Below are positions 12,863 through 60,761 of a stretch of 64,000 nucleotides of DNA, piece by piece. Each line of letters starts with the position of its first letter. Position 1 is the stretch's first letter. The notes below the pieces were generated by a model that was not told the origin of the DNA, made no database searches, and worked only from the letters and a program-made list of their open reading frames with translations. Origin of the DNA: a virus; the IMG/VR virus record IMGVR_UViG_3300045988_074321, positions 1 to 64,000 of that record. One strand, written 5' to 3'. Position numbers and translations under genes: made by a program.

Positions 12863-14836
12863 ATGACAACAGAAACTCTTATTGTAGCGGGTGTTATTGT
12901 ACTCTTAGTAGTTGTAACTTTTATCGGACTTTTGTCTCGGTATCGTAAGTGTGCTAGTGATGAAATCCTGGTAGTATTTGGTAAGGCAGGAAAGAAGAAG
13001 GTAGTTAACGAGAAGACTGGTAAAACGGAGGAAGTTATACTGCCGTCTAAAATCATCCACGGCGGAGGTACATTCGTAATGCCTGTCATTCAAGACTGGG
13101 CTAAAATGTCCTTGAAACCTATTCAGATTCAGGTAATGGTAGAGGGAGTATCCAGCCAAATGATTAAGGTTAGGATTCCTGTGACATTAACTACTGGTAT
13201 AGGAACCGATCAAGTACTAATGCAAAACGCTGCAAGCAGATTCTTAACAGCTAAAACTTCTGAAATCTCAGACCAAATCAAGGATATTCTCATTGGTGAA
13301 GTGAGAAGCTTGATGGCAACAATGACGATTGAGGAAATAAATGCTGATAGAATCAAATTTATCGGCAAGGCAAAAGAGAATATTGAAACTGAGTTGAACA
13401 AGGTAGGTTTCAGTATTATCAATATTAACAACGCTGATATCTCGGACGATGCAAACTATATCAAGAATCTTGGTCAGAAAGCTGCAACTAAAGCTCTTGC
13501 TCAGGCACAGGCTGACATTGCAGAAGAGAAGAAGAAAGGAGATATTCAGATTGCAGAAACCAACAAACAGCGTGAGATTGCCGTAGCCGATGCTGAAAAG
13601 GAAAGAGAAACTACAGTTGCTCAAACTAAGCAAGAACAGGAAGTAAAGGTTGCTGAGATTAATCAGGAGAAAGCTATTCGCTTGGCAGAAGCAGAAAAGA
13701 ACAAACAAGCTGGTATCGCTGAACAGAAGGCGGAACAAGAAGCTAGTATTGCTCGTGCAAACACTCAAGCAGAATCAGCTAAAGCTGAAGCTGAATCTCA
13801 GAGAATAGCTAATGTAGCGAAATCCGCTTCAGAGGCTGCTTCTAAGAAAGCTGCTGCTGACGCAGAAGCAGAAGCTAATGTAGCTAAAGCTAAGGCAGAA
13901 GCAGATTCTAAGAAAGCTGAAGCTGAAGCTCTGAAGCAAACTCGTATTGCTCAAGCTAAGCAAAAGCAGGAAGCAGACACTCAGAAAGCAATTAATGAGC
14001 AAGAAGCTGCTACTGCAGAGTATGAGTCTCAGAAGAGAATTAAGGCTGCAGAAGCTGACAAGCAAGCTGGAGTAGCTGAGCAGAAAGCAACTATTGAAGT
14101 ATCAAAGGCAAAAGGAGAAGCTGCACAGGCACAAGCTGAAGCAGAAAAGGTAGCTGGTACTTCTAAAGTAGAAGCAAGAATGGCTGTAGCCAAAACAGAA
14201 CAAGAACGCCAGATTGAGGTTAACGAAGCTGCTGCTAAGGCAGAGGAAGCAAAACTTCAAGCTGAAATGATTGTTCCTGCTCAGAAACAAAAAGAGAGAG
14301 TAACTATTGAAGCAGAAGCAATTAAAGCCAAAGCGGTATTGGAAGCAGAAGCAGAAGCTGCAAAGATTTTGAAAGAAGCAGAAGCGAAAGCTGACGCTAC
14401 TAAACTGCAGTTAGAAGCAGAGGCAGAAGGTACTCGCAAGAAATTGCTTGCTGAAGCTGAAGGTAAGAGAGCATCATTGATGGCAGAAGCTGATAAGGTT
14501 CAAGCTATCGAAATGGCTCCAGCCTTGGCAGTTGAGAAGATGATTGAATCTGGCTTGACTCCTGAAATGGTGGTTCAGTACAAGACAGTTGACCAGTTGA
14601 CAGGTATTGCAGAAGCATCTGCTCAGATGTTTGAACACGTTCACCTTGGACAGGTTACTGTTTATGGTAACGAGAATACCGCTGGTAACTTCATGGCTAA
14701 AACTGCTGAGAACTTGAATCCTGCGTTCGACTTGCTTCGCTCTATACCTTTCGCTGATACACTGAAAAGTGTTCTCGGCAAGAAAGAGTTGGAGGAGAAG
14801 AAAGCTGAAACAACTGAGTTTGAAGAAGTGAAGTAA
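12863..14836 (+). CDS. flotillin-like SPFH/band-7 protein (YqiK-like) with long Ala/Glu/Lys-rich coiled coil
   Basis: N-terminal TM, SPFH domain, ~300 aa of EA repeats, C-terminal conserved tail; minus-strand ORFs inside are low-complexity artefacts. Confidence 0.8.
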   Translation: MTTETLIVAGVIVLLVVVTFIGLLSRYRKCASDEILVVFGKAGKKKVVNEKTGKTEEVILPSKIIHGGGTFVMPVIQDWAKMSLKPIQIQVMVEGVSSQMIKVRIPVTLTTGIGTDQVLMQNAASRFLTAKTSEISDQIKDILIGEVRSLMATMTIEEINADRIKFIGKAKENIETELNKVGFSIININNADISDDANYIKNLGQKAATKALAQAQADIAEEKKKGDIQIAETNKQREIAVADAEKERETTVAQTKQEQEVKVAEINQEKAIRLAEAEKNKQAGIAEQKAEQEASIARANTQAESAKAEAESQRIANVAKSASEAASKKAAADAEAEANVAKAKAEADSKKAEAEALKQTRIAQAKQKQEADTQKAINEQEAATAEYESQKRIKAAEADKQAGVAEQKATIEVSKAKGEAAQAQAEAEKVAGTSKVEARMAVAKTEQERQIEVNEAAAKAEEAKLQAEMIVPAQKQKERVTIEAEAIKAKAVLEAEAEAAKILKEAEAKADATKLQLEAEAEGTRKKLLAEAEGKRASLMAEADKVQAIEMAPALAVEKMIESGLTPEMVVQYKTVDQLTGIAEASAQMFEHVHLGQVTVYGNENTAGNFMAKTAENLNPAFDLLRSIPFADTLKSVLGKKELEEKKAETTEFEEVK

Positions 14837-16369: not shown

Positions 16370-16446
16370 AGGGACGTATCCCCTCAAGCTTATACCTTGT
16401 AGAAAGGGTAGTTGGTCGCACGTGGGTTCAAACCCCACCGTCCCTA
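16370..16446 (+). tRNA. tRNA-like gene with perfect acceptor (agggacg/cgtccct) and T-arm (gtggg-TTCAAAC-cccac) but aberrant D/anticodon arms (9-10 nt anticodon loop TTGTAGAAAG)
   Basis: hand-folding; anticodon not assignable. Confidence 0.4.
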
Positions 16447-17315: not shown

Positions 17316-17726
17316 ATGAATTATCAGTATTTTGGATTGTTCTTAGATGAACCAACTAGAAACAAACTTATGCAAGTTATCATTGGAAATCCCATTATTT
17401 GCAATCTGGTGTTCCAAAGAGGAAGTACTATTTATTTAGATCATTGCACTCTTCTCCATAAAAATCAACATGAAGAAAAGATGGCTAATGACCTACAATA
17501 TCGTATAGATGGTAATTTTCGATTAATTGTAAACAAAATAGGGATTTCTGAGAAAGCAATAGCTTTTGGAGTAGAATTGGGAGACCAATATCTGCCTTGT
17601 GCAAATGCTAAACCTCATATCACTATTTGTACAATCAACAAGGGTAAACCAGTAGATAGCAATGGTATTGCAACTTGGATTCCAATTCCAGAATTTAGTA
17701 TTTATTGCCATCTTAAAGTAGTATAA
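17316..17726 (+). CDS. hypothetical protein
   Basis: ORF track. Confidence 0.5.
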   Translation: MNYQYFGLFLDEPTRNKLMQVIIGNPIICNLVFQRGSTIYLDHCTLLHKNQHEEKMANDLQYRIDGNFRLIVNKIGISEKAIAFGVELGDQYLPCANAKPHITICTINKGKPVDSNGIATWIPIPEFSIYCHLKVV

Positions 17727-21680: not shown

Positions 21681-21757
21681 GTAGGGAAATAACTGATAAG
21701 GATATTAATGATTCATTATTTAATATCCCATTTAGAGAGAAGTACTTTAAATCTTAA

Positions 21758-21842
21758 TATCCGTGTGGGTGAATGGTTTAGCCATCAGTCTGCAAAACTG
21801 AAAAGAGAAATCTTTAATGAGGGTTCGAATCCCTCCACGGAT
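21758..21842 (+). tRNA. type II (long variable arm, Ser-like D-arm) tRNA with anticodon GCA (Cys codons)
   Basis: acceptor atccgtg/cacggat, anticodon stem tcagt/actga, loop CTGCAAA, 17-nt variable arm with internal stem, T-arm gaggg-TTCGAAT-ccctc; D-arm nearly identical to tRNA-Ser(GCT) at 14899. Confidence 0.55.
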
Positions 21843-21863
21843 TCTAATTTTAAATTTAAAAAT

Positions 21864-22499
21864 ATGGCATATATTTATTGCATTACAAATTTAATTAATA
21901 GCAAGCGATACGTAGGAAAAACTACTACTTCTATAGAAGAGCGCTGGAAGGAACATTGTTATGACTTTTAGAAAGAAAGATGCAACAAAAGACCTTTATA
22001 TGATGCCATGAATAAGTATGGTGTTGAGAACTTTATGATAGAGGAATTGGAATATGTAGATAGTAACTCTGAATTATCTGAAAGAGAAATCTATTGGATA
22101 AAAGAGCTAGGAACTTATGGTTCTAATGGGTACAATGCCTCTAAAGGAGGAGATGGCACTATTCTATACAATCATAGTGAAATTGTAGAATTAGCTAGAT
22201 TGGGATATACTAGTTCTTAGATACAAGAAAAAATAGGGTGCTGTAAAGACACTATTTACAAAGTTTTGAAGGCAAATAATATAAAAATTAGAAAAAGTAA
22301 CGCAAAGTTAATTGCTTAGTATGACTTAGCAGGTAATTTTATACAGGTATTCTTTGGTTCCAGAGAAGCTTAGGAATGGTTAATTAATAACGGAATTACT
22401 GACAATAAATCTGCATAGAGTCATATTATAGGATGCTGTAAGAATAAAACCAAATCATAGTATGGCTATATTTGGAAATATCTTCCAGAGCCTATTTAA
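21864..22499 (+). CDS. GIY-YIG homing endonuclease with C-terminal HTH/DNA-binding repeats; 6 in-frame TAG codons (21969, 22218, 22317, 22371, 22416, 22458) read as sense
   Basis: MAYIYCITNLINSKRYVGKT..RW..H + NKYGVENF..EREIYWIKELGT..GYN aligns with I-TevI catalytic domain across the TAG; downstream YDLAGNFIQVFFGSREA-Q-EWLINNGI...YGYIWKY typical HE DNA-binding tail; track splits it into 21708..21971 and 22008..22220; true stop TAA 22497. Confidence 0.65.
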
Positions 22500-22968: not shown

Positions 22969-23040
22969 TGGGGTATAGTTCAAAGGTCAGAACTTTTGAC
23001 TGTTAATCAAAGAATCATGGTTCGAGTCCATGTGCCCCAG
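22969..23040 (+). tRNA. tRNA-Asn (GTT)
   Basis: acceptor tggggta/tgcccca, D gttc/gaac, anticodon stem tttga/tcaaa, loop CTGTTAA, T-arm catgg-TTCGAGT-ccatg. Confidence 0.8.
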
Positions 23041-23569
23041 CTATTGACCTTATATTAGATTATGCATCAGTGTGATTATTGTTGTTGGTACTACAGTGGA
23101 AATTGTGATTGTCCATATGTAATGAAGAAACAAGCGTGTGAAAATGCTTTGAAAACTAAAGAGAGAAATGAAAGACCTATTAGAAAAGTACAAAATGTTT
23201 CAAACTCCAAAACTAGCTAATGAGATTTCATGGAAAGACATGAAGGAATTTAACTCTTATATGAAAGAAGTAGTTCGTGATTATAAGATTAAACAGGCTA
23301 AATCAATTCAGAGTGCTAGAAACGTAATAATATCCTGACCTGGCAAGGTAAAAATCCATTCGGGGTTTAAGTTGAAGCCAGTCCCTGCGGAATCATAAAG
23401 ACCTTTTCTGATACGATAGTCGATGAACTGAGAGAGTAGTATGGTTGCGGACTTATGCTACTAGAACATGATTTAAACAAAAAAAACTTATCTGGTGATG
23501 TTAGGTTATGGAATCCTAACAGTGGAAATTTATGAGTTATGTCACCAATTAAAAAGAAAATCTCAAACA

Positions 23570-23642
23570 TGGGCCGTTAGCTCAAATGGCTAGAGCGCTG
23601 GTTTTGCACACCGGAAGATAGGGTTCGAGTCCCTGCGTGTCC
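23570..23642 (+). tRNA. tRNA-Ala (TGC)-like with G3:U70 but 3 mismatches at base of acceptor stem
   Basis: gggccgt vs cgtgtcc; D gctc/gagc, anticodon stem ctggt/accgg, loop TTTGCAC, T-arm taggg-TTCGAGT-ccctg; looks like a 3-nt inversion (cgt vs acg). Confidence 0.5.
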
Positions 23643-23661
23643 ACAACAAAATTAAATAATT

Positions 23662-23847
23662 ATGAAAGTATACGTAGTCGTAGTGAACCATCATCCAGCT
23701 AATGCGCCTCAGAACTATAAAACTGAGTGTCAGATATTTCTGGATAAAAAGGAAGCCGAAGGCTATAAGAAAGCCAAGGAAGAAGAATATCCCATACGTT
23801 GGGGAGGTGAATACAATCATTGTGAAATATTTAAAAAGCATTTGTAA
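23662..23847 (+). CDS. hypothetical protein
   Basis: ORF track. Confidence 0.4.
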   Translation: MKVYVVVVNHHPANAPQNYKTECQIFLDKKEAEGYKKAKEEEYPIRWGGEYNHCEIFKKHL

Positions 23848-23850
23848 TAT

Positions 23851-23923
23851 CGCGGGGTGTTAGCAGAGGTAGCTAGTCAGGCTCATAACCTGAAGGTCGA
23901 GGGTTCGAGTCCCTCTCCCGCTA
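23851..23923 (+). tRNA. tRNA-Met (CAT), initiator-like (C1 unpaired, CGCGGGG 5' end)
   Basis: 5' CGCGGGGTG as in E. coli tRNA-fMet; anticodon stem tcagg/cctga, loop CTCATAA; T-arm gaggg-TTCGAGT-ccctc. Confidence 0.75.
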
Positions 23924-23956
23924 CTAGTAATTAATTAGATACTTAATTTTTAGATT

Positions 23957-24382
23957 ATGAATTACAAAAATCTTACTAAAGAAACTCTCCCCGTAGAGTT
24001 TCAAAACAGAATCGAACGATTTAATCGTCTATTCTCAGCTGCAACCGACCATTCCTTTGAAGAGGATGACTTGTTTGAGTATGAAATGTTATGTATAAAG
24101 CAGGCTCTTTCATTCTCGGAATTTTTCCAAGATTTCGGTGATGAACAGTATCAAGACTTCTTGAAGCAATATGAGAGCTTATACGACTTAGTTGATGCTA
24201 TTAAGGACAAACTTCAGTTCTTTGATAACGGACATACTGGAAACTCTATGAGCATGAGTTGGCTTTTATTCCGAACTTATCGAGAAAGACCGGAATTAGT
24301 TCCGTATATGCACGGATGCTTGGCTCAGCTCGTTGGGGATGAAGGCTATTATGATGACCGTTCAGATGTTCCAGAACTATGA
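23957..24382 (+). CDS. hypothetical protein
   Basis: ORF track. Confidence 0.5.
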   Translation: MNYKNLTKETLPVEFQNRIERFNRLFSAATDHSFEEDDLFEYEMLCIKQALSFSEFFQDFGDEQYQDFLKQYESLYDLVDAIKDKLQFFDNGHTGNSMSMSWLLFRTYRERPELVPYMHGCLAQLVGDEGYYDDRSDVPEL

Positions 24383-24675
24383 GCGTAATACAACAGGTCT
24401 ACTTAGCTGAATCAGGCAGTTCTATTTACATAAAGGGGATTAAACCTGATAAAGAGAATGAATATTCTGGTGAGATTACTCTAAACGGTAATCCCACTAG
24501 ATTAGAGAGAAAAGAACGTTACCATATAAGTAACGGTATGCTTGTTACAGATAGTTATCATATCCCTATGGAGTTCATTATTAGCTTCTTGCAGGCTAAC
24601 GGATGTGTTCAAGAAGGAGAAGATGGCAAGTCGTATGTTGTTTTAAGAGAAGTAGAATTTAAATTGAATAACTAA
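24379..24675 (+). CDS. hypothetical protein
   Basis: ORF track. Confidence 0.5.
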   Translation: MSVIQQVYLAESGSSIYIKGIKPDKENEYSGEITLNGNPTRLERKERYHISNGMLVTDSYHIPMEFIISFLQANGCVQEGEDGKSYVVLREVEFKLNN

Positions 24676-25256
24676 TGTTATCAGTATTATATAGCGAATA
24701 TGAGCTGTGGGGTTGTCCTAATTGTGGGTGCGATTCCGTTATAAGTAGTGGAGTTTCTGGAGGAGGTCTAACATCTGGAACTTGTAGACATTGCAAGTTA
24801 AAATTTGAAGTTAGAAGCGAAAATCCAATGGGAATAGTCAAATATGGCTGCCATCCAGAAAATCCCTCAGACCCGAAATCTAAATGGGTTATGGAAAGCG
24901 CAATCAGAATTGAACATCCTAGAAAAGGTATTCCTGCATGGAATTGGGAACCAGTTGACGAACGTCCAGAAGAAGGAGAATATTGGAACTCTCGTGGTCC
25001 TGGCTATCCAGATGTTTCTGGCTTTGTAAAGACCAAAGCTGCTGGTGAGCGTATTCTAGCTATGGTGCATGAAGTGTTAGGAACTGACAAGTGTAAGACT
25101 TATCTAGATTTCAGACCAAGTGAACCAACGTGGATTCAATTCAAATTTCATAAAGACGAGTTTGATATAGAGAAACTAGATTCTCTTACTCGTGATAGTG
25201 GAATAATTACTAAAGACATAATCAAACAATGTATTTATGGCAAAAGTAGTAAATAG
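24675..25256 (+). CDS. hypothetical protein with N-terminal zinc ribbon
   Basis: CPNCGC...CRHC. Confidence 0.5.
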   Translation: MLSVLYSEYELWGCPNCGCDSVISSGVSGGGLTSGTCRHCKLKFEVRSENPMGIVKYGCHPENPSDPKSKWVMESAIRIEHPRKGIPAWNWEPVDERPEEGEYWNSRGPGYPDVSGFVKTKAAGERILAMVHEVLGTDKCKTYLDFRPSEPTWIQFKFHKDEFDIEKLDSLTRDSGIITKDIIKQCIYGKSSK

Positions 25257-25488
25257 GGCCTCTGATATAATCCAACTTAAAGACCTAAAGGATGGGGAAT
25301 TTGCAGAAGTGATAGAATGGTTTGAGGATGGAACAGTATCTAACGGAGATATAATTCAAAGATGTGGACTTGCACTATTTATATTAGGAAGTTGTTCTTA
25401 CTATCCTGAGATATTTAGTAAGGGTGCTAGAGACTATACTAATACTAAGTTACGGACACTACCTGAGGGTACAACTATAATGTTATAA
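25237..25488 (+). CDS. hypothetical protein
   Basis: ORF track. Confidence 0.4.
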   Translation: MAKVVNRASDIIQLKDLKDGEFAEVIEWFEDGTVSNGDIIQRCGLALFILGSCSYYPEIFSKGARDYTNTKLRTLPEGTTIML

Positions 25489-25528
25489 TTTCTTTTTCCA
25501 GTTTTCTAATTAAAGATAAACTGGGTAT

Positions 25529-26090
25529 GGGCCTACTTGGATTTGACAGGCGATTACAAATTATAAGGACGTGTAGAGCGCAATCTCTTTAAACGAAGAA
25601 AAAACAATAAATGCTACTTATAGCGAAGTAAGAATGGCAGCCTAAGCTGCTGGCTTGTTGGTAAACACTATTAACTAAGTCGGGTTACGGGAGAGACCTA
25701 GAAACAGAAGAGGTTGAGTATATTGATATAATGGAGAGCTAGGCTCTAATCCTAGTAATATGCTCTTAATCAGAACACTCTAAGAGTTAGTAAGACTGAA
25801 TCTCCTACGTCATAAAACAGATGGAAGATGTGTTCCGTGAGATGTGACGAATCTCTAAAGTATCATCCCGTTCTCCAACGTAAATGGAGTGGTGGAACGT
25901 TGACTTCGGTCAGCCCTATAGTTTGGTAGCTTGTAGATAAGCATCTAGAGAAATACTTAGTATGGACTCTTGTAAGACTTATAAAACTACCTAAATGCTA
26001 GAACTCCCTAGCTGATATAATAAAAATGAGACGCACGTTATCCTTGTAACGAGGGTTGTTTGGACACGGGTTCGACTCCCGTTAGGTCCA
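25529..26090 (+). ncRNA. ssrA: tmRNA (SsrA); tag reading frame 25613..25645 encoding ATYSEVRMAA-stop
   Basis: 5' GGGCCTACTTGGATTTGACAGG parallels E. coli ssrA 5' end; resume GCT preceded by A-rich AAAAAACAATAAAT; tag ends AA+TAA; 3' GGACACGGGTTCGACTCCCGTTAGGTCCA T-arm/acceptor pairing with 5' gggccta; 560-bp ORF-free interval. Confidence 0.7.
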
Positions 26091-26096
26091 CATAAT

Positions 26097-26170
26097 AGGG
26101 CTATAGCTCAACTGGTTAGAGCACCACACTGATAATGTGGAGGTTATCAGTTCAAGTCTGATTAGCCCTA
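26097..26170 (+). tRNA. tRNA-Ile (GAT)
   Basis: acceptor agggcta/tagccct, D gctc/gagc, anticodon stem ccaca/tgtgg, loop CTGATAA, T-arm atcag-TTCAAGT-ctgat. Confidence 0.85.
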
Positions 26171-26247
26171 CAAAACCGCCAGCTCACGCGGTATATAAGA
26201 AAGGATTGCCGGACTCGCAGGTGTAACGAGATAAATACCTGCATTTT

Positions 26248-26286
26248 CGAGGCTGTGGTGTAATGGCTTGCATATCACACTGTCAT
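26248..26286 (+). other. 5' half of a second tRNA-Asp(GTC) gene (acceptor cgaggct, D-arm, anticodon 5' stem tcaca + loop CTGTCA)
   Basis: pairs perfectly with 3' half at 26943..26979 (tgtga anticodon 3' stem; agtctcg acceptor). Confidence 0.6.
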
Positions 26287-26307
26287 TAAAATTAATTAAA
26301 CTTATCT

Positions 26308-26859
26308 GTGAATCGAGAACAATCTCTTAAATTGTATTATGAGAATCCTAACCACTGTAAGGAATGTGGTAAGGTAATCGAAGTACTAGATAATCAGAGG
26401 GTCGCAGATGTGAGGAAGAAACAGTTTTGTAGTCATTCGTGTGCTGCTTCTTACAATAATAGAGGTAGGATAAAGCACGATGAAAACAAGATATGTCCTA
26501 GATGTGGTAAACCTAAGCATAAAGATTCAGAAATGTGTCGTAGTTGCTGGGAAGAACTTAATGGAATTGGTAACAAAACATTAGGTTATTATACATCTGG
26601 GCAGAAGTACTTATCATCTAAATGTCAAGAAATAAGGACTAATGCTCGTAGAGTATTAGAAAGTTCCGAACGTGAGAAAGTATGTCAATATTGTCATAAT
26701 CATGAATTTGATGCAATACTTGAAGTACATCATCTTAAAGGAATATTAGAATTTGACGAAGACACTCTTATTAAGGAGATTAACAACGAGAATAATTTAG
26801 TATGGTTATGTCCGAATCACCATATTATGTTAGAGAAGGGTTTAATTAGTCTGGAGTAA
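26308..26859 (+). CDS. HNH homing endonuclease (GTG start)
   Basis: EVHHLKG ... LVWLCPNHH plus CxxC zinc knuckles. Confidence 0.8.
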   Translation: MNREQSLKLYYENPNHCKECGKVIEVLDNQRVADVRKKQFCSHSCAASYNNRGRIKHDENKICPRCGKPKHKDSEMCRSCWEELNGIGNKTLGYYTSGQKYLSSKCQEIRTNARRVLESSEREKVCQYCHNHEFDAILEVHHLKGILEFDEDTLIKEINNENNLVWLCPNHHIMLEKGLISLE

Positions 26860-26870
26860 TCCAGTTACAC

Positions 26871-26942
26871 CGAGGGTTAGTTCAGTGGTAGAATAGTGCA
26901 CTGTCTATGCGAAGGTCACCAGTTCGAGTCTGGTACTCTCGG
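26871..26942 (+). tRNA. tRNA-Asp (GTC), intact
   Basis: acceptor cgagggt/actctcg, D-arm TAGTTCAGTGGTAGAATA as in E. coli tRNA-Asp, loop CTGTCTA, T-arm accag-TTCGAGT-ctggt. Confidence 0.8.
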
Positions 26943-26979
26943 CACTGTGAAGGTTGGGGTTCGAATCCCCCAGTCTCGG
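26943..26979 (+). other. 3' half of split tRNA-Asp gene (anticodon 3' stem tgtga, variable aggt, T-arm gggg-TTCGAAT-cccc, acceptor agtctcg)
   Basis: complements 26248..26286 fragment. Confidence 0.6.
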
Positions 26980-26986
26980 CATTTAT

Positions 26987-27059
26987 TCCCCTGTAGTTTA
27001 GTTGGTTAGAACACGTGATTTGTAATCTCGAGACCTCGGTTCGAATCCGAGTGGGGGAT
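26987..27059 (+). tRNA. tRNA-Thr (TGT)
   Basis: acceptor tcccctg/tggggga, D gttt/gaac, anticodon stem cgtga/tctcg (central mismatch), loop TTTGTAA, T-arm ctcgg-TTCGAAT-ccgag. Confidence 0.65.
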
Positions 27060-27086
27060 CTTAACCATTAAATTAGATTAATTTTT

Positions 27087-27761
27087 ATGACTAGATTAGA
27101 AAAGTATTTAGTAGCAACTGCTACTGAGATTATCGAAGCGGAAACAACTGTTTCTCGCTACTTTGTCATTGGAAACGTCAAAGTTAGAGTATCAGACCAT
27201 TTAAGTAAAATGAGTGATGCAGACTTACAAGTGATTATTCCATTGAACGGAGGGACTAAGTATATAGTTACTGTTAAGGATAGTCCTGGAAAATTTCTTG
27301 TATGGAATGCAACTCAAATAAAAGACTTTATTCCTTCATTGCAGATTATTAAGGGCTTGAAGGAAGGAGTACAACTTAAGCCAAAACCTAAAGACTCTGC
27401 AGTTCAGAAGATTCAGCTAGCATTAAATAATAGTAATACCGATGGAGGTTCGTTAACGTTCGATGGTACTATTATCGAGTCTAGATTGAAAGAAAAGCAA
27501 CTTACCTCTAAACAGCGGGAAGTTTTCAGGAGAACTAAATCTACTTGGGATATTTCTCAGATTGGAACATTACCCAGTATGATTAAAGTAGATTTGGGAT
27601 TGTCAAATGGTTCTGTAAACGAAGATGTGCAGATATTTCTAACTTGTACATCTTTAACCTACAAAGAAATTCTGAACATTTATAAAATAATAGTTGTTGA
27701 TAACCATATGGTTCCAACTATTAAACTGTTGCAAGAAGCTTATAGCTTAATTGTGCAGTAG
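27087..27761 (+). CDS. hypothetical protein
   Basis: ORF track. Confidence 0.55.
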   Translation: MTRLEKYLVATATEIIEAETTVSRYFVIGNVKVRVSDHLSKMSDADLQVIIPLNGGTKYIVTVKDSPGKFLVWNATQIKDFIPSLQIIKGLKEGVQLKPKPKDSAVQKIQLALNNSNTDGGSLTFDGTIIESRLKEKQLTSKQREVFRRTKSTWDISQIGTLPSMIKVDLGLSNGSVNEDVQIFLTCTSLTYKEILNIYKIIVVDNHMVPTIKLLQEAYSLIVQ

Positions 27762-27764
27762 GAT

Positions 27765-27836
27765 AGCGCCATCATCTAATGGTTAGGATTCAGGCTTTTC
27801 ACGCCTGCCATACGGGTTCGAATCCCGTTGGCGTTA
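27765..27836 (+). tRNA. tRNA-Glu (TTC)
   Basis: acceptor agcgcca/tggcgtt, anticodon stem caggc/gcctg, loop TTTTCAC, T-arm acggg-TTCGAAT-cccgt. Confidence 0.8.
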
Positions 27837-27842
27837 CTATGT

Positions 27843-27876
27843 ACCCCAGCAGCGGAAGTTGTTGGGGTATTTTTTG
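27843..27876 (+). terminator. hairpin accccagc...gttggggt + TATTTTTT
   Basis: stem followed by T-run after tRNA-Glu. Confidence 0.55.
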
Positions 27877-27893
27877 TTTAATATAATTAATAA

Positions 27894-28214
27894 TTGATGA
27901 GAAAAACATTTGAGTTTGTAAAGGTTGGAGGAGTCTGGTTCTATTGGTGGCCAGATTATGACGGAACACCAGAGGAACTAGCAATGGTTGGTGGTGCAGA
28001 TGAACTTCTTGATTCTCTAGATAATAAGTTTGTTAGATTGCAGATGGTTGACCCAGCTGCAGCTAAGATAACGTTGTCTAAAATTGAGGAGGATGAATGT
28101 GGAGCAACTTACTTATGCAAAAGTAAGAATTACAATGACAGGGTATGGATTTGTGCTGTAACTCTATCAGTATTCGGGGAATATCCTCAAAATATTTACC
28201 TAAAAGATATGTAA
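27894..28214 (+). CDS. hypothetical protein
   Basis: ORF track. Confidence 0.5.
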   Translation: MMRKTFEFVKVGGVWFYWWPDYDGTPEELAMVGGADELLDSLDNKFVRLQMVDPAAAKITLSKIEEDECGATYLCKSKNYNDRVWICAVTLSVFGEYPQNIYLKDM

Positions 28215-28217
28215 AAA

Positions 28218-28643
28218 ATGAAAACGTTAAATGAGATTTTAGACAATTACAAAGACTATGCCGTAGTTCTCGATGACCGTTTCGGTTCTAGATTAGCAAA
28301 GTTTTTAACAGAAGAGCAGTTAGAAAAAATAGGCTTCAAGTACGATGGTGATGAGCCTTATCCAGAGCCTAAGGAATGGACTAGAGAGAATATCCTAGAG
28401 CAACTTAAGTCTGACGTGGAGTTTGGTTTTGAGAAGGCTCTAGACCAGAGAGGCATTTCAGCTAGCCTAATGTTCTACGTGGTACTAAGGTGGAATCAAG
28501 TTCTAGAAGAGGGCTTAGAGAATTATCCTGAAGAGAATTATGCTATGTATGGGTTGCCTTTGTTTAAGGCTACTGCTGTAAAGTATGGATGGGAGAATCC
28601 TATAGGCGACGATAATGGGGACGAAGAGTTCTACAATGAGTAG
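28218..28643 (+). CDS. hypothetical protein
   Basis: ORF track. Confidence 0.5.
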   Translation: MKTLNEILDNYKDYAVVLDDRFGSRLAKFLTEEQLEKIGFKYDGDEPYPEPKEWTRENILEQLKSDVEFGFEKALDQRGISASLMFYVVLRWNQVLEEGLENYPEENYAMYGLPLFKATAVKYGWENPIGDDNGDEEFYNE

Positions 28644-28839
28644 CGCTATGAAGGAATCTTCTATACTTAAAGCAATTTCTGACGCTATTGAAGAATACGA
28701 GGAAAATCAACAAAGACGAATAGACCTGTTAGAGAGTAAAATTCTGCTATTTGAGAGAGAAAGGGAGGCTTTTATTCGGCATTTGAGAGAAGGAAACATT
28801 CAATTATTAAAGGATTATCTAGGAATTAAAGATGAGTAA
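28615..28839 (+). CDS. hypothetical protein
   Basis: ORF track. Confidence 0.4.
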   Translation: MGTKSSTMSSAMKESSILKAISDAIEEYEENQQRRIDLLESKILLFEREREAFIRHLREGNIQLLKDYLGIKDE

Positions 28840-35268: not shown

Positions 35269-36285
35269 ATGAAGAAAATTTTTAGTATTATTTGTTTGTG
35301 TTTAATGTGCGTGTTTGCTAGCGCACAAGTTGTTGAAACTGGAAGTTTGAAAGATAACTGGTATGTTTCTGGTAATGTAGGTACTACAATTTGGGACAAC
35401 TCAAGAAGTTGGGCTGAACCTCGTGATGTATTAGTAAATATTGCGGTGGGTAAAGAAATTACTCCTATCTTTGGACTAGAGTTAGATATGATGGCAGGTA
35501 TGAATCAAGGCAGTGAAACGTTCTTCGATTCCCATAACCTTACAGCTAATGTAACTACTAATCTAACTAATCTTATTTGTGGATACGAAGGCTCTAGACG
35601 TTTATTTGAGCCTGTATTACTGATAGGTGCTGGTTGGTATCATACTTATGGTGATGTTTATAATAATGTATCTGCAAGAGGTGCAATTAGATGCAACTTT
35701 AATATTACTGATAGTTGGGCATTAAATGTTACTCCTGAGTATATGTTACTTCCCAAGACTTCTCCTCTGAATCATGAGTTTAACGTCTATATTGGTGCTA
35801 CCTATCGCTTTAAGTCTAGCAAGGGGGACTTTCCAATTATGAAGTTGTATAGTGATGCCGAGGTTGAAAGCCTAAACGCTTCTATTAATGAGTTGAGAGC
35901 CAAGAATGAGGAACTTATGGCTCGTAAACCAATAGAAATTGTTAAGACGGACACAATCGAAATTACTAAAGTAGAGCTTTTGACTCCAAAAATTCAATTC
36001 CTTCAAAATTCTTCAGAGATTTCTAAAACTTCCAATGTGGCTGTCTCAGAACTAGCTTCCTATATTTCTAATAGTGGAAAAACTTATGTGATTGAGGGAT
36101 ATGCTTCGGAAGAAGGTCCAGAAGAGTTTAATAATAACCTTGCTGTAGCTAGGGCAGAATCTATGAAGAAGGCTCTGATTAGCTATGGTGCTCCAGAGGA
36201 TAAATTGGTTGTTAAGGGATGTGGAATTACCACTGAATTTGGAGATAATGAATTTAATCGTATCGTAATAATTTCCGAACAATGA
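35269..36285 (+). CDS. OmpA-family protein (signal peptide, coiled coil, C-terminal OmpA/MotB peptidoglycan-binding domain)
   Basis: MKKIFSIICLCLMCVFASAQ signal; YVIEGYASEEGPEEFNNNLAVARAESMKKALISYG OmpA-like motif. Confidence 0.7.
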   Translation: MKKIFSIICLCLMCVFASAQVVETGSLKDNWYVSGNVGTTIWDNSRSWAEPRDVLVNIAVGKEITPIFGLELDMMAGMNQGSETFFDSHNLTANVTTNLTNLICGYEGSRRLFEPVLLIGAGWYHTYGDVYNNVSARGAIRCNFNITDSWALNVTPEYMLLPKTSPLNHEFNVYIGATYRFKSSKGDFPIMKLYSDAEVESLNASINELRAKNEELMARKPIEIVKTDTIEITKVELLTPKIQFLQNSSEISKTSNVAVSELASYISNSGKTYVIEGYASEEGPEEFNNNLAVARAESMKKALISYGAPEDKLVVKGCGITTEFGDNEFNRIVIISEQ

Positions 36286-36526: not shown

Positions 36527-36739
36527 ATGGTCGAGAAAAACTTAATTAAGGCATTTGTTGCCGTTCTATTAATCGTTGTAATTTACAACATCAGCTTATG
36601 GTTATTATCCGAATCATTGTATGCTGCAAATATCTTGGGGTTGTTACTATTACTAGTGGCAATCCCAAGTTTAGTTTATAGGATATTCAAATATATTAAG
36701 AAACATTACTTAAATAAGGAAAATGAAGACAATTATTAA
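36527..36739 (+). CDS. small membrane protein
   Basis: ORF track; two TM helices. Confidence 0.45.
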   Translation: MVEKNLIKAFVAVLLIVVIYNISLWLLSESLYAANILGLLLLLVAIPSLVYRIFKYIKKHYLNKENEDNY

Positions 36740-37550
36740 GATTTTGTGCGTATTAACTTTAGTGTTTGGCTTATCTAGTTGTGGCTATGAGAGAATTGAT
36801 GCTGGTTATGAAGGCATCAAGGTAAATCTATACGGAGATGGTAAAGGAGTAGACGATGTGTCTCTTGTTACTGGTGCGGTATGGTACAATCCTGTTACTA
36901 CGGCTGTATATGAATATCCTACATTCGTACAGACTGTGGACTATCCTCCTTTCAGTATTAATGCTAAAGATGGATCATCATTTACTGTAGACCCTACAAT
37001 TTCTTTGAAGATTGTTGACGGGAAATCACCAGAAGTATTTAAGAAGTATAGAAAGGAAGATATTGTAGAGGTAATTAACACTACTTTGTATAATTACGTA
37101 AAGAATGCTTTTCGCATTCAGCTGAATAACTATACTACTGATGAACTAGTAAGTAAACGTGAGGAGTTTGAGAAGTCTATAGAAGATAGACTGTCAAAGG
37201 AACTCTTGGCTGAGAATTTTCAGCTTGAACAAATGACTTCTGGTCTTCAATATCCACAGACGCTAGTCAATTCTATTGATGCTAAGAATGCTGCAATTCA
37301 ACAGGCTTTGAAGGCAGAGAATGAAGTTAAGACTATTGAGGCAGAAGCTAAAAAGAAAGTAGCAGCTGCACAAGGAGAGGCAGAAGCTCTTAAGATTAAG
37401 GGTGATGCAGAAGCTGAATATAATAGAAAGATTTCAGCATCTTTGTCAGTTCTCATAGTTCAGCAGGATATGATTAAGAAGTGGGATGGAAAACTTCCTA
37501 CTTATGGTCAGGTTCCCACCTTATTTAAAGATGTAGCTAATAACAAATGA
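36723..37550 (+). CDS. SPFH/band-7 (prohibitin/HflC-like) lipoprotein
   Basis: lipobox LSSC; SPFH-like core; C-terminal EAEAKKKVAAAQGEAEALKIKGDAEAEYNRK. Confidence 0.6.
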   Translation: MKTIIKILCVLTLVFGLSSCGYERIDAGYEGIKVNLYGDGKGVDDVSLVTGAVWYNPVTTAVYEYPTFVQTVDYPPFSINAKDGSSFTVDPTISLKIVDGKSPEVFKKYRKEDIVEVINTTLYNYVKNAFRIQLNNYTTDELVSKREEFEKSIEDRLSKELLAENFQLEQMTSGLQYPQTLVNSIDAKNAAIQQALKAENEVKTIEAEAKKKVAAAQGEAEALKIKGDAEAEYNRKISASLSVLIVQQDMIKKWDGKLPTYGQVPTLFKDVANNK

Positions 37551-38404: not shown

Positions 38405-39955
38405 ATGGAAATAATTAATGCTACAGATGGTTACAAGTTGGGCCATCACAGAATGTACCCCGAAGGTACTGAACAAGTTTATAGTAACTGGACTCCTAGA
38501 AGTAATAAATACTTCCCAGAAGCAACCGAAGGTTCAGTAGTATTTGGTATTCAATACCTAATCAAAGAATATCTCATTAAACAGTTTGAGAAAAACTTCT
38601 TTAATCTACCAAAGAAGGAAGCTGTGGAGATGTTCTATCGTAGAGTAAACAACTTTGTTGGTATTGAATCCGTTGGGTACAGACATATTGAAGCTTTATA
38701 TGACCTTGGGTATCTACCAATTCGCATAAAGGCTCTTCCTGAAGGTTCTGTGTGCCCTATTCGGGTTCCCATGATGACCATTACAAATACTCTACCCGAG
38801 TTCTTTTGGTTAACTAACTACTTAGAGACTATTATCAGCTGTACCTTGTGGATGCCATGCACATCTGCTACTAGAGCTAGGCTTTATAAGAAAGAGCTAC
38901 ATCGTCATGCTTGCAAGACTGGTTTTCCAACAGATGTAAATCTTGGTTTTTGTTGTCATGATTTCTCAATGCGAGGTATGGCGGGAATGGAAGCCGCAAT
39001 TATATCTGGTATGGCGCATATGACTTCTTTTGTGGGAAGTGAAACTATTCCAGCTATTGCTGCTTTGGAAGAATATTATGGAGCTAATTCAGACGAGGAA
39101 TTGATTGCTGCTACAGTTCCAGCAACAGAACACTCTGTAATGTGTGCTGGAGGGGAGGAAGATGAGCTGGGCACTTTCAAACGTCTAATTAATGATTTGT
39201 ATCCTTCTGGGTTTGTTTCTATTGTATCTGATACTTGGGATTTCTGGAATGTAATTGAAAATTTCTTGCCCAAGCTGAAGAAAGACATTATGGCTCGTGA
39301 TGGTAGAGTAGTAATCCGTCCTGATAGTGGAGACCCAGTAGATATAATCTGCGGGTTGAGAACTAATCCTCACTTCAATACCAGAATGAAAGAAGGTAAG
39401 TATTATTGCTGCTATGCTCCGTTTAACGACGATGCAGAGTATGTTGAAGTGTCCGAAGGTCAATATTATGGGGCATATTATATGCTTGGTAAAATCTTCG
39501 GATGGAATACTACTTCAAAGGATTACCGTTATCCTAGCACTAAGGTTGGTCTGCTTTATGGAGATTCTATTACTCTGGAACGTCAAAAGCAAATCTACTT
39601 GAGATTAGAAAACGCTCATATGGCGGCTTGTAATCTCGTTCTGGGAGTAGGTTCATATTCCTATCAGTATGCAAGTAGAGATAGTCTTGGGTTTGCTATT
39701 AAGGCTACTGCTTGCGTAGTAAATGGCGAATTGAAAGAAATCTTCAAACATCCTAAAACTGATGATGGTACTAAGAACTCTTTGAAAGGTTTGATTGCTG
39801 TCTATAAATGTCTGGATGGGAAGTATACTGCTACCGACCAGGTCTCAATCGAGGAGGAAAAAGAGGGATGCTTAGAGACTGTCTTTGAAGATGGTATCTT
39901 GAAGAAAGAATATTCTCTTGAAGAAATCAGACAAAGAATTGACCATGGACTTTAA
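38405..39955 (+). CDS. nadV: nicotinamide phosphoribosyltransferase (NadV/NAMPT)
   Basis: 516 aa; N-term TDGYKLGHHRMYP, GF..HDFS.RG, GDSITLER typical of NAMPT. Confidence 0.85.
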   Translation: MEIINATDGYKLGHHRMYPEGTEQVYSNWTPRSNKYFPEATEGSVVFGIQYLIKEYLIKQFEKNFFNLPKKEAVEMFYRRVNNFVGIESVGYRHIEALYDLGYLPIRIKALPEGSVCPIRVPMMTITNTLPEFFWLTNYLETIISCTLWMPCTSATRARLYKKELHRHACKTGFPTDVNLGFCCHDFSMRGMAGMEAAIISGMAHMTSFVGSETIPAIAALEEYYGANSDEELIAATVPATEHSVMCAGGEEDELGTFKRLINDLYPSGFVSIVSDTWDFWNVIENFLPKLKKDIMARDGRVVIRPDSGDPVDIICGLRTNPHFNTRMKEGKYYCCYAPFNDDAEYVEVSEGQYYGAYYMLGKIFGWNTTSKDYRYPSTKVGLLYGDSITLERQKQIYLRLENAHMAACNLVLGVGSYSYQYASRDSLGFAIKATACVVNGELKEIFKHPKTDDGTKNSLKGLIAVYKCLDGKYTATDQVSIEEEKEGCLETVFEDGILKKEYSLEEIRQRIDHGL

Positions 39956-40382
39956 TCATCCTTTTGGGAAAGAAGCTTGCAAGAAACGACTATTAGAAGA
40001 GTATCATAAATACGGAAAGCTAATAGTCGCTTTCGATTTTGATAATACTATTTTCGATTACCATAATACTGGCGGAGATTATAGTTGCGTTATAGAACTA
40101 CTTAAAGAATGCTCACTTCTAGGTTTTGAAATGATTTTATTCACCACTGATGAAGATGATTATAAAATTATGGCAAAGCAGACAATTTGTATGCGATTAG
40201 GAATAGCAAATATTACTTCTAATACTTTATCTGCTCCAAACATTAGTAGTTCTATATTCTCTAAATCTAAGAAACCTTATTACAATATCCTCCTAGATGA
40301 TAGGGCAGGTCTGGAAGAAAGTTATGAAATCTTAAAATATGTAGTAGATGAAATTAAACTTAATCAACAAGGAAATCAGTGA
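39918..40382 (+). CDS. HAD-superfamily hydrolase (phosphatase)
   Basis: DFDNT (DxDxT) motif near N-terminus. Confidence 0.5.
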   Translation: MKKSDKELTMDFNHPFGKEACKKRLLEEYHKYGKLIVAFDFDNTIFDYHNTGGDYSCVIELLKECSLLGFEMILFTTDEDDYKIMAKQTICMRLGIANITSNTLSAPNISSSIFSKSKKPYYNILLDDRAGLEESYEILKYVVDEIKLNQQGNQ

Positions 40383-41157
40383 AATTAAGTACGATGTTAC
40401 TAGATTTCCTGATGGAGAGCCTCAGTTTTTCCTTACTGAGGAATTAAACAGAAAGGAATCTATTGATGTCATTTGTAGAATATCTAATACTGAGGATTTA
40501 TTCCTCTTAGTGCAAGTAGGAGATATTTTAGATAGACAAGAAGTAGAATGGGATTTACACATTACTTATTTAATGTCTATGCGTATGGATAGAGTAATGA
40601 GTTTTAATCGTCCATTCTCCTTGAAAGTAGTATGTAATATGTTAAATAGCTTAGGCTATAGAAACATATATGTTCTTGAGGCACATTCTAGTAGAACTTT
40701 TCATCTTCTTGGTGACAGATGTTTACCTTGGGAATTTGGACACCACTCTTGGATTCCAGCCCAAAGTAATATCGTGTTCCCAGACCATGGGGCGAAGGAC
40801 AGATATGGAAGTAACTATTCTCACTATGGTTATTTAGTCTTCAAAAAGGAAAGAAATCTAGAGACTGGAAGAATTGAGTCCTTTGAAATAGAGGAGTCTA
40901 AGAATTGCTACTATTCTACATTTGTGTTCATTGATGACTTGTGTGATGCCGGAGGAACTTTCCTAGGAGAGCTTAAGGTTCTCAAAGAGAGATATCCAAA
41001 TAGCAAGTTTATCATAATCGTATGTCACGCAGTTAATGATAAAGGTCTGATTAATATGTGTAATAATTTTGACCAGGTTATTGTATCTAATTCTCATAGG
41101 GATATTAATTATCGTCCCAGCAACGAGAACTTAACTGTAATAGACGTTTGTAAATAA
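40348..41157 (+). CDS. ribose-phosphate pyrophosphokinase (Prs)-like PRTase-fold protein
   Basis: PRPP-binding loop FIDDLCDAGGT; size/N-terminal region Prs-like. Confidence 0.6.
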   Translation: MKLNLINKEISEIKYDVTRFPDGEPQFFLTEELNRKESIDVICRISNTEDLFLLVQVGDILDRQEVEWDLHITYLMSMRMDRVMSFNRPFSLKVVCNMLNSLGYRNIYVLEAHSSRTFHLLGDRCLPWEFGHHSWIPAQSNIVFPDHGAKDRYGSNYSHYGYLVFKKERNLETGRIESFEIEESKNCYYSTFVFIDDLCDAGGTFLGELKVLKERYPNSKFIIIVCHAVNDKGLINMCNNFDQVIVSNSHRDINYRPSNENLTVIDVCK

Positions 41158-60459: not shown

Positions 60460-60761
60460 TAAGAAAATTTACTAACATCGTTTGTGTATATTACAACGAC
60501 AAAAATTATATTCCAGCTAAGTATAATTGTCCAGACTTAGAGATTGATGATGTAATTCTCAACCTGACTACAAACAAGGAACAGAATTATGAAAAGATTT
60601 CTGAGATTATTGTTGATTATGCCTTTGCTTTGTTTTGTAATAAATCTGATTTAAAGGATTTTGCACAAGACCATAAGAAGTATAAGAGGCAGAACTGGAA
60701 ATTGCTCGACTTTAGGGAAATAATTAAAACAACAGAGATAAAACCAAAAGATCAGAAATGA
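60456..60761 (+). CDS. hypothetical protein
   Basis: ORF track. Confidence 0.45.
   Translation: MIRKFTNIVCVYYNDKNYIPAKYNCPDLEIDDVILNLTTNKEQNYEKISEIIVDYAFALFCNKSDLKDFAQDHKKYKRQNWKLLDFREIIKTTEIKPKDQK

Follow-up and report, generated by a model that had tools for sequence, protein, structure and literature searches.

A tmRNA gene in a phage tRNA array

The DNA analyzed here, hereafter called the window, is the whole stretch of 64,000 nucleotides (nt) comprising positions 1 to 64,000 of IMG/VR virus record IMGVR_UViG_3300045988_074321. We examined the interval 25529-26090 on its plus strand, which belongs to a phage tRNA array, is flanked by phage genes and overlaps no open reading frame (ORF) longer than 33 amino acids. 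An initial annotation had described this interval as an ORF-free region of ~560 bp that encodes a transfer-messenger RNA (tmRNA; ssrA) with the tag peptide ATYSEVRMAA and sits directly upstream of tRNA-Ile. The gene measures 562 nt, and the tRNA begins 6 nt downstream at 26097. We conclude that the interval very probably represents a functional, standard one-piece, intron-less tmRNA gene of a large crAss-like phage, whose host would be a Gram-negative anaerobe and probably a member of the Bacteroidota.

25529..26090 (+), whole tmRNA (ssrA) gene, 562 nt from G1 to the discriminator A, matching the RF00023 model
26097..26171 (+), tRNA-Ile(GAU), recognized by ARAGORN and by Rfam (74.3 bits), 6 nt past the tmRNA, an arrangement kept in most relatives

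The identification as a phage-encoded tmRNA is supported by a full-length covariance-model match, a conserved tag frame, covarying helices and the phage context. When the entire 64-kb window was searched against all 4227 Rfam families, the tmRNA model RF00023 matched at 25529-26093 over model positions 1-374 of 374, with 62.6 bits (gathering score 47) and an E-value of 4.4e-22. The acceptor stem, helix 2, the resume GCU, the stop codon in the helix-5 loop and the T-arm all fall at the expected model positions, and the gene carries one 213-nt segment where the model has 26 nt. Six relatives spanning the diversity of the family likewise match RF00023 over its full length (63.5-96.4 bits). The two-piece permuted form (RF04321) was considered and rejected, as it reached 24.5 and 14.8 bits (gathering score 47) and the domain order is standard. 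Rfam families other than tmRNA and tRNA gave only sub-threshold noise in 25450-26180 at E-values up to 1. The initial annotation had staked its assignment on a covariance-model hit and a recoverable pseudoknot, and both were obtained: the RF00023 match and at least one H-type pseudoknot with compensatory changes.

The tRNA-like domain and helix 2

Base pairing was evaluated in an alignment of 15 sequences with a hand-built explicit structure, for which the controls were partners slid by 1-3 columns and 500 shuffles. All pairing percentages given here refer to this alignment.

25529..25535 (+), 5' strand of the acceptor stem, GGGCCUA, pairing with 26083-26089
25536..25546 (+), D-loop analogue CUUGGAUUUGA, aligned to the GGAUUCGAC region of the RF00023 consensus and nearly invariant in the family
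25547..25574 (+), 5' strands of helix 2 (2a 25547-25555, 2b 25561-25569, 2c 25570-25574)
26033..26062 (+), 3' strands of helix 2 (2a 26054-26062, 2b 26041-26049, 2c 26033-26037)
26066..26082 (+), T-arm ACGGG-UUCGACU-CCCGU, 5 bp, 100% paired
26083..26090 (+), 3' strand of the acceptor stem, UAGGUCC, and discriminator A, assigned from the sequence and the 15-sequence pairing

The tmRNA reads GGGCCUACUUGGAUUUGACAGG at its 5' end and GGACACGGGUUCGACUCCCGUUAGGUCCA at its 3' end. The resemblance to E. coli ssrA that had been remarked on for the 5' end was borne out, with GGGCCTACTTGGATTTGACAGG beginning at 25529, and GGAUUUGAC and GGAC align to GGAUUCGAC and GGAC of the RF00023 consensus. The predicted pairing of a 3' T-arm and acceptor strand with the 5' end was also recovered: the 3' region GGACACGGGTTCGACTCCCGTTAGGTCCA forms both elements, with the discriminator A at 26090. 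All 7 bp of the acceptor stem are paired in 100% of the sequences, G3:U70 is invariant, and pair 7 changes from A:U to G:C in the relative L212. A G3:U pair specifies alanine charging of tmRNA. The 23 pairs of helix 2a-c are all 100% paired, with four compensatory pairs in 2b, and the T stem has two compensatory pairs (ACGGG/CCCGU to GAGGG/CCCUC) below an uninterrupted T-loop, UUCGACU. The gene thus has both parts of the predicted SmpB-binding elbow: a T-arm whose loop is of the GUUCGAnUC type, and a D-loop analogue that lacks a D stem.

A conserved tag frame with a variable N-terminal part

25589..25612 (+), A-rich spacer, single-stranded, with AUAAAU at its end and U(-5)A(-4) ahead of the resume codon
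25613..25645 (+), tag frame from the resume GCU to the stop UAA at 25643-25645, encoding ATYSEVRMAA
25636..25651 (+), helix 5, GGCAGC-CUAA-GCUGCU, 6 bp, 100% paired, with the stop codon in its loop

The A-rich region, the GCT resume codon and a tag ending AA-TAA are present as originally read, and the frame runs GCU ACU UAU AGC GAA GUA AGA AUG GCA GCC UAA (ATYSEVRMAA and stop). Five tag variants were tallied among the 28 full-length copies of the family.

AEIAPVRMAA, 14 of 28 copies
ATYSEVRMAA, 10 of 28 copies, three of which end in UGA and show a synonymous change from GCC to GCG
AEIDYNRMAA, 2 of 28 copies
AAYSEVRMAA, 1 of 28 copies
GNTTYRMAA, 1 of 28 copies, with the resume codon GGA

The frame is intact in 28 of 28 copies and is 9-10 codons long. 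Its C-terminal RMAA is present in every variant while the N-terminal part varies, and the stop is UAA or UGA, never UAG (0 of 28). All five variants retain U(-5)A(-4) upstream of the resume codon, which we take to be the counterparts of the frame-setting positions U85 and A86 of E. coli. Such variation is the pattern expected of a translated tag that would be under selection. The usual tags of Bacteroidota are of the G..NYALAA type, and ATYSEVRMAA is no copy of them; host prediction from the tag alone is weak. The conserved ...RMAA ending offers a concrete peptide signature for searches of gut metaproteomes.

The middle domain is expanded by exchangeable arms

The middle domain, which runs from helix 5 to the 3' strand of helix 2, spans ~380 nt and has at least 10 helices; in it, conserved blocks alternate with lineage-specific arms. 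Since the variable arms do not align, an automatic covariation helix finder run on the global alignment returned G-U-rich noise for the most part, and the hand-built model was used in its place. Over the whole named structure of the RNA, 93.4% of cells hold standard pairs, compared with 37-49% in the slid controls, and there are 23 compensatory pairs compared with 2-8. None of the 500 shuffles reached the observed pairing or covariation.

25575..25588 (+), hairpin AGAG-CGCAAU-CUCU at the site of pseudoknot 1 (pk1), its 4 bp (helix 3) invariant
25652..25681 (+), A/U-rich long hairpin directly after helix 5, 12 pairs, 96.6% paired, three compensatory
25682..25806 (+), H-type pseudoknot, stem 1 25682-25686/25695-25699, stem 2 25689-25694/25801-25806, third loop 101 nt
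25716..25765 (+), lineage-specific arm in the third loop (RNA nt 188-237), closing stem 25716-25724/25757-25765, inner hairpin 25739-25743/25751-25755
25777..25798 (+), two small conserved hairpins, ACUC-UAA-GAGU and UAGU-AAG-ACUG, 87.5% and 98.3% paired
25807..25868 (+), second lineage-specific segment (RNA nt 279-340), replaced by ~27 nt in the L081, L083, L212 and L180 types
25869..25913 (+), stem-loop CGUU/CUCCA...UGGAG/AACG and then hairpin UGAC-UUCG-GUCA, 77-89% paired, three compensatory pairs
25921..25996 (+), long-range helix GUUUGGUAG..UU / AA..CUACCUAAAU (RNA nt 393-468), 11 pairs, 97.6% paired, enclosing the third arm
25935-25982 (+), third lineage-specific arm, exchanged between lineages (L095 has the L180/L212 type)
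25997..26012 (+), terminal hairpin of the middle domain, GCUAG-AACUCC-CUAGC, 94.4% paired, with an invariant AACUC in its loop

The H-type pseudoknot is the best-supported element of the middle domain and follows the usual tmRNA design of two short connecting regions and one long one. Stem 1 (GGGUU/GACCU; RNA nt 154-158/167-171) is 100% paired. Stem 2 (GGGAGA/UCUCCU; RNA nt 161-166/273-278) is 85% paired with four compensatory pairs, its covarying counterparts being GGAAGG/CCUUUC (L212) and GGAGAA/UUCUCC (L081). A minimum free energy fold had offered CUCCC (RNA nt 476-480) as an alternative partner for GGGAG (RNA nt 161-165), but this pairing was rejected because, unlike that with nt 273-278, it does not covary in L212 or L081. 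Beyond this pseudoknot, the remaining ~220 nt consist of covarying helices without a one-to-one match to pk3 and pk4.

The arms vary as units. Where the third-loop arm is present, its 9-bp closing stem is 100% paired with four compensatory pairs and is fully compensated in another lineage; elsewhere its place is taken by unrelated arms of 29-75 nt that have closing stems of their own. The conserved hairpin stem ACUC/GAGU becomes AGCC/GGUU in L081-type sequences. In the second variable segment, the helix 280-284/316-320 (RNA numbering) is 39% paired as indexed, with an indexing that is off by 1 nt. At the pk1 site, the hairpin reaches 8 bp in L180 and L212 (AGAGUUGG-CA-CCAACUCU), for which an alternative pairing of UUGGCA with UGC(A)CAA would make a weak possible pseudoknot.

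The initial annotation had considered the gene longer than typical tmRNAs, perhaps as the result of an insertion. The excess length is real, but it is spread over several modules of the middle domain and not confined to a single insertion. Judging from the alignment, the extra ~200 nt is an expanded modular pseudoknot domain, neither an intron nor a single insertion, and the domain appears to have expanded as lineage-specific arms were added within pseudoknot loops and within helices. The pseudoknot domain of known tmRNAs tolerates replacement. The extra sequence is expected to stay in the mature RNA.

Relatives of the gene are found in phages and include mosaics

Two IMG/VR pattern scans, a BLAST screen and end-anchored extraction recovered 28 full-length copies. 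With partial copies, the family is present on 30 viral contigs, mostly of 93-192 kb, many of them from a human gut dataset. Lengths range from 514 to 574 nt, and what sets the shortest relatives (514-515 nt) apart is a set of several small indels instead of a single block. In the annotated phage collection, similarity was confined to two unannotated human-faecal contigs, MT837398 and MT836666. A scan of 185,579 species-representative bacterial and archaeal genomes for a 20-nt motif of the family gave one record (L215; CALEBD010000016.1), a 29.8-kb contig in a 'Clostridium sp.' metagenome-assembled genome that is collinear with window positions 22991-28801. This collinearity indicates a wrongly binned phage contig, which could mislead host assignment. 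Because the motif is otherwise absent from these genomes, the family is, within these searches, confined to phages. One contig with the 5' motif and a suppressor tRNA, L141, has no tmRNA.

Two relatives are mosaics: L208 joins a window-type middle domain to a different tag module, and L095 joins a window-type 5' half to the distal arm of L180/L212. Recombination has occurred inside the tmRNA gene, where tag module and distal arms are shuffled between lineages, and the downstream context (tRNA-Ile or other sequence) changes exactly at the tmRNA 3' end. In the copy at L098:7390-7960, CCCGTTGGCGTTAC takes the place of the 3' acceptor strand and matches the 3' end of the window tRNA-Glu (27765-27837) exactly. 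This implies either a deletion between two similar T-arms or an assembly chimera, and the acceptor stem of that copy would be broken.

Two endonuclease-like reading frames lie near the gene. An HNH-endonuclease-like ORF at 26308-26859 (+) directly follows tRNA-Ile, and a GIY-YIG domain is split over two adjacent ORFs at 21708-22220 (+) in the tRNA array, where it overlaps a tRNA-Cys call. Both may be homing endonucleases that drive the mosaicism. In L180 and L212, which diverge most within the family, a RAGATH-34 RNA is located no more than ~1.5 kb from the tmRNA (L180:324-430 (-), 120.6 bits; L212:10331-10435 (+), 70.3 bits); none is present in the window.

Evidence weighed against the assignment

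Several observations count against a functional tmRNA. ARAGORN, which had been proposed (as ARAGORN -m) to check the gene, returned nothing on the native sequence: neither the 64-kb window nor the isolated gene yielded a tmRNA call. The Rfam score of 62.6 bits is modest and would be classed as 'weak' under the 140-bit criterion of an earlier study (PMC11915505). No helix-4 partner for pk1 was found in the window lineage, and Rfam marks the pk1 helix-4 columns as non-canonical. Folding of the middle domain is only slightly more stable than that of shuffled sequences (z = -1.38), and since this thermodynamic stability is unremarkable, the case for the structure rests on covariation. The tRNA-like domain is nearly invariant in most members, so that compensatory evidence for the acceptor and T stems comes mostly from two lineages (L212 and L180/L127). 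The ...VRMAA ending is unlike the usual ...ALAA, which makes the predicted recognition by host proteases uncertain. No SmpB was found by Pfam among window ORFs of at least 70 amino acids, or near the 28 family copies by tblastn with E. coli SmpB, a query that did detect SmpB beside tmRNAs in nine unrelated loci. Finally, a 3'-terminal CCA is not encoded in any family member; in the window, the acceptor strand is followed by ACAU (the discriminator A, then CAU).

Many bacterial tRNA and tmRNA genes lack an encoded CCA, which is added enzymatically, and its absence is not disqualifying. Without an SmpB gene in the window, the tmRNA probably uses the SmpB of the host. Pk1 is present in nearly all tmRNAs and missing in a few natural ones (PMC1168896).

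The ARAGORN result was traced to length. When RNA nt 200-340 were removed (141 nt, leaving 421 nt), the program reported a tmRNA with the tag ATYSEVRMAA* at 85-117, whereas constructs with 21-81 nt deleted still gave no tmRNA. Among the loci of relatives, 515-nt members were called with an implausible tag and every member of at least 547 nt was missed; other one-piece viral tmRNAs that ARAGORN called in the loci examined measure 152-491 nt. The native gene is therefore missed because of the size of its middle domain and not because a tmRNA feature is absent. The negative call is a limit of the tool, not evidence against a tmRNA.

Genomic context, phage type and host

The tmRNA and tRNA-Ile are probably co-transcribed, in which case an RNase P cut at the tRNA would define the 3' trailer of the tmRNA. 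On the upstream side, a hairpin was read from the sequence.

25498..25524 (+), hairpin CCAGUUU-13 nt-AAACUGG, its end 4 nt upstream of the first tmRNA nucleotide

Other hairpins occupy the same position in relatives (CCCGTC-TAATT-GACGGG in L044 and L208; GGCATGA-GAGTATAA-TCATGCC in L212). In these three unrelated upstream sequences, each hairpin ends 4-5 nt before the mature 5' end, which suggests a processing or termination element that is conserved in position and not in sequence. Sigma-70 promoter-like sites were no commoner than in shuffled sequence, and the 'terminators' reported by a promoter/terminator scan proved to be helix 5 and an internal tmRNA hairpin.

The window holds 26 tRNAs by ARAGORN and 28 matches to the Rfam tRNA model. 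Matches not called by ARAGORN lie at 23571-23643 and 16370-16446 (+), with 39.5 and 31.7 bits, and several of the tRNAs that ARAGORN calls exceed the usual length of their type (Cys 86 nt, Met 80 nt). A small ORF in a tRNA-rich region, 17316-17726 (+), matches a 2H-phosphoesterase/tRNA-ligase CPD domain (27.7 bits, cutoff 23), and its product may have a predicted RNA-repair function.

The window also encodes a replication module (a DnaB-like helicase, a Toprim primase, RNase H and helicases) along with NrdD, dUTPase, NAD-salvage enzymes and an OmpA-family outer-membrane beta-barrel protein. A possible NAD-salvage set comprises a nicotinamide phosphoribosyltransferase, a PRTase-like protein and a cytidylyltransferase-like protein (38405-39955, 40348-41157 and 60758-61312, respectively, all +), the last of which, judged from its sequence and not from a family match, is possibly a nicotinamide mononucleotide adenylyltransferase. 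The OmpA-family protein has a signal peptide and is encoded at 35269-36285 (+); two SPFH/Band-7 (flotillin-like) proteins are encoded at 12863-14836 and 36723-37550 (+).

The nearest characterized relatives of the helicase (24-29% identity) belong to crAss-like Bacteroides phages and to Flavobacterium and Cellulophaga phages. Genome sizes in the family are 178-193 kb, and this size, the replication and nucleotide-metabolism genes and the many tRNAs, including suppressors, fit the 'Zeta' crAss-like group (PMC7886860). From these properties, the phage looks like a member of that large-genome group. The host is probably a Gram-negative anaerobe, likely of the Bacteroidota, as suggested by the helicase relatives and the OmpA-type protein.

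Suppressor tRNAs and stop-codon recoding

A tRNA-Gln-like amber suppressor tRNA(CUA) is encoded at window positions 1939-2011 (-) and an ochre-suppressor tRNA(UUA) at 5196-5266 (+). The exact anticodon arm of the ochre suppressor occurs in only six viral contigs, and its presence is odd in a window where TAA ends 59 of 101 ORFs. A RAGATH-14 RNA (4963-5169, +, 156.6 bits) lies 26 nt upstream of it; no mention of RAGATH-14 was found in the literature searched.

Window genes end in TAA (59), TGA (31) and TAG (11), and no recoding of TAG, TAA or TGA was detected inside the window, where all three serve as stops. In relatives with loci past the amber suppressor, reading TAG as sense raises the long-ORF content 4-6-fold, and reading TGA as sense causes no rise. 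The recoded late genes of these relatives, adjacent to the amber suppressor (L239:6519-11260; L227:2247-6991), have 16-19 in-frame TAG codons in the terminase large subunit and 28-32 in the portal gene. As predicted from these reading frames, the genome is split between two codes. Of the 29 contigs with the exact amber suppressor, 21 are among the 30 tmRNA contigs, but these genomes are related to one another and the overlap is no independent sign that suppressor and tmRNA are functionally linked.

Nonsense suppression is a known source of the non-stop complexes that tmRNA handles (PMC8012679, citing Ueda et al. 2002). We therefore entertain, as a tentative and rather unlikely proposal, that the tmRNA belongs to a genetic-code-switch toolkit of the phage. 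Expressed suppressors would cause readthrough of UAG (and perhaps UAA) stops in host and early phage messages, some of the readthrough ribosomes would stall at mRNA 3' ends, and the phage tmRNA would recycle them. If so, tmRNA presence would track stop-codon recoding across crAss-like phages. The occurrence of a ribosome-rescue RNA alongside suppressor tRNAs in TAG-recoding phages makes this link between code switching and ribosome rescue testable.

Proposed function and alternative explanations

The following pathway is modeled on established tmRNA biology, including its trans-translation steps of charging, delivery and tagging. A precursor would be transcribed together with tRNA-Ile and cut by RNase P at G25529 and at the tRNA 5' end, after which the 6-nt trailer would be trimmed and CCA added by a host enzyme. 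Host alanyl-tRNA synthetase would charge the RNA with alanine via G3:U70, and host SmpB and EF-Tu would deliver it to ribosomes stalled at mRNA 3' ends. Translation would resume at GCU (25613), add (A)ATYSEVRMAA and end at the UAA in the helix-5 loop, so that the ribosome is freed and the protein marked. The likely benefit to the phage would be extra ribosome-rescue capacity during infection. The gene itself has the features required for alanine charging and for entering the ribosome as a tRNA mimic, and it is maintained by selection in the phage lineage.

A working tmRNA might instead act mainly on the fate of the tagged proteins. It would compete with the host tmRNA, and host proteases or adaptors would read its phage-specific ...VRMAA tag differently, so that products are protected or sent to another protease; the enlarged middle domain might aid competition or resistance to host RNases. 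The retention of RMAA in all five variants beside a free N-terminal part is consistent with such a role. Interference by phage tmRNA-like RNAs has a precedent in mycobacteriophage DS6A, whose tag-less RNA of this kind, once expressed in E. coli, inhibits the endogenous tmRNA (cited in PMC11915505). The authors who described the phage Melnitz also propose selective tagging of host proteins (PMC9004378). However, the tag still has the general form of a degradation tag, with a hydrophobic residue ahead of a final Ala-Ala, 'MAA' endings also occur in other viral tmRNAs detected here, and no phage protease or adaptor was seen in the window. We consider this role improbable compared with ribosome rescue.

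The length of the gene could in principle be explained by a self-splicing group I intron or another mobile insertion that interrupts the tmRNA. At 562 nt, the gene is long enough to be an intron-form tmRNA gene, as these are known from 545 bp upward (PMC11915505), genomes of the crAss-like Zeta group are intron-rich, and the HNH-like and GIY-YIG-like ORFs are nearby. Known tmRNA introns, however, reside in the T-loop (PMC11915505), and UUCGACU is intact here; no group I intron (Intron_gpI) match was found in 25450-26180 at E-values up to 1. The excess is distributed over at least three segments that vary independently, each closed by its own covarying stem, and the 514-515-nt relatives do not differ by any one block. 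An interrupted gene is thus very unlikely.

Equally hard to credit is a decaying, non-functional remnant, either a host tmRNA picked up when a prophage excised imprecisely or a fragment resembling attP. In favor of this reading, prophages often integrate at tmRNA genes and phage genomes contain fragments of them (PMC9004378), pk1 looks degenerate and the L098 relative has a broken acceptor stem. Against it, the gene is full length and not a 3' fragment, the family extends over 30 contigs, the acceptor, helix 2 and the T stem show compensatory changes, the tag frame is intact in all 28 full copies, the 20-nt family motif has no bacterial counterpart in the 185,579 species genomes, and the L098 defect is a single case explained by fusion to the tRNA-Glu 3' end.

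Comparison with known tmRNAs

Like the bacterial one-piece tmRNAs, the RNA of the window has a tRNA-like domain with G3:U70, a T-arm and a discriminator A, a long helix 2, an A-rich spacer with U(-5)A(-4), a GCN resume codon, a 10-codon tag ending in Ala-Ala, a stop codon in the helix-5 loop, and a pseudoknot/helix domain that would close the ring. It differs in size, 562 nt compared with about 350-360 nt typically (363 nt in E. coli), in a pk1 that appears reduced to a hairpin in the window lineage, in its ~380-nt middle domain and ...VRMAA tag, and in being encoded by a phage without an adjacent smpB. The longest of the 274 sequences in the 2005 tmRDB alignment measures 425 nt (PMC1168896, PMC8012679). 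The cyanobacterial pk4a/pk4b tandem and the beta-proteobacterial helix 6d are precedents for added or split modules with function kept (PMC1168896). Those modules amount to a few tens of nucleotides, whereas here the addition comes to ~200 nt and closely related phages have swapped modules. A tmRNA apparently tolerates a pseudoknot domain of twice the usual size together with a reduced pk1, and the family thereby offers natural data on which parts are constrained.

The intron-form tmRNA genes (545-1116 bp, with a group I intron in the T-loop; PMC11915505) resemble the present gene in exceeding 500 bp and in being missed or mis-called by standard tools. Their T-loop is interrupted, whereas here it is intact, there is no group I match, and the extra sequence is in the pseudoknot domain.

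Phage tmRNAs are established: of 18,146 phage genomes, about 2.3% have one that ARAGORN detects, and both tmRNA and SmpB are encoded by huge phages (PMC9004378, PMC7162821). Like the tmRNAs of huge phages, mycobacteriophages and marine myophages such as Melnitz, the gene described here is a complete tmRNA borne by a large phage along with many tRNAs and further genes related to translation, and the role proposed for the reported examples is translation upkeep or protein tagging during infection (PMC7162821, PMC9004378). The Melnitz tmRNA is two-piece and permuted, with a glutamine riboswitch, whereas that of the window is one-piece with no Rfam element inside. Huge phages often carry SmpB, and none was found in the window or the family flanks.

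In the literature searched, we found no report of a tmRNA in a crAss-like phage, as papers with both terms list ARAGORN in their methods only, and the main comparative paper on the large-genome crAss-like groups does not mention tmRNA (Yutin et al., PMC7886860). The reported phage tmRNAs were found by ARAGORN, whereas members of the present family of at least 547 nt escape it. Surveys based on this program (Pharokka and most virome pipelines) have a length blind spot, and the phage tmRNA frequency of ~2% is therefore probably an underestimate. The crAss-like phages are the most abundant human gut viruses. With phage tmRNAs already known, what distinguishes the present family is its size, the modular and recombining middle domain, the apparently reduced pk1, the RMAA tags, the crAss-like carrier and its invisibility to ARAGORN.

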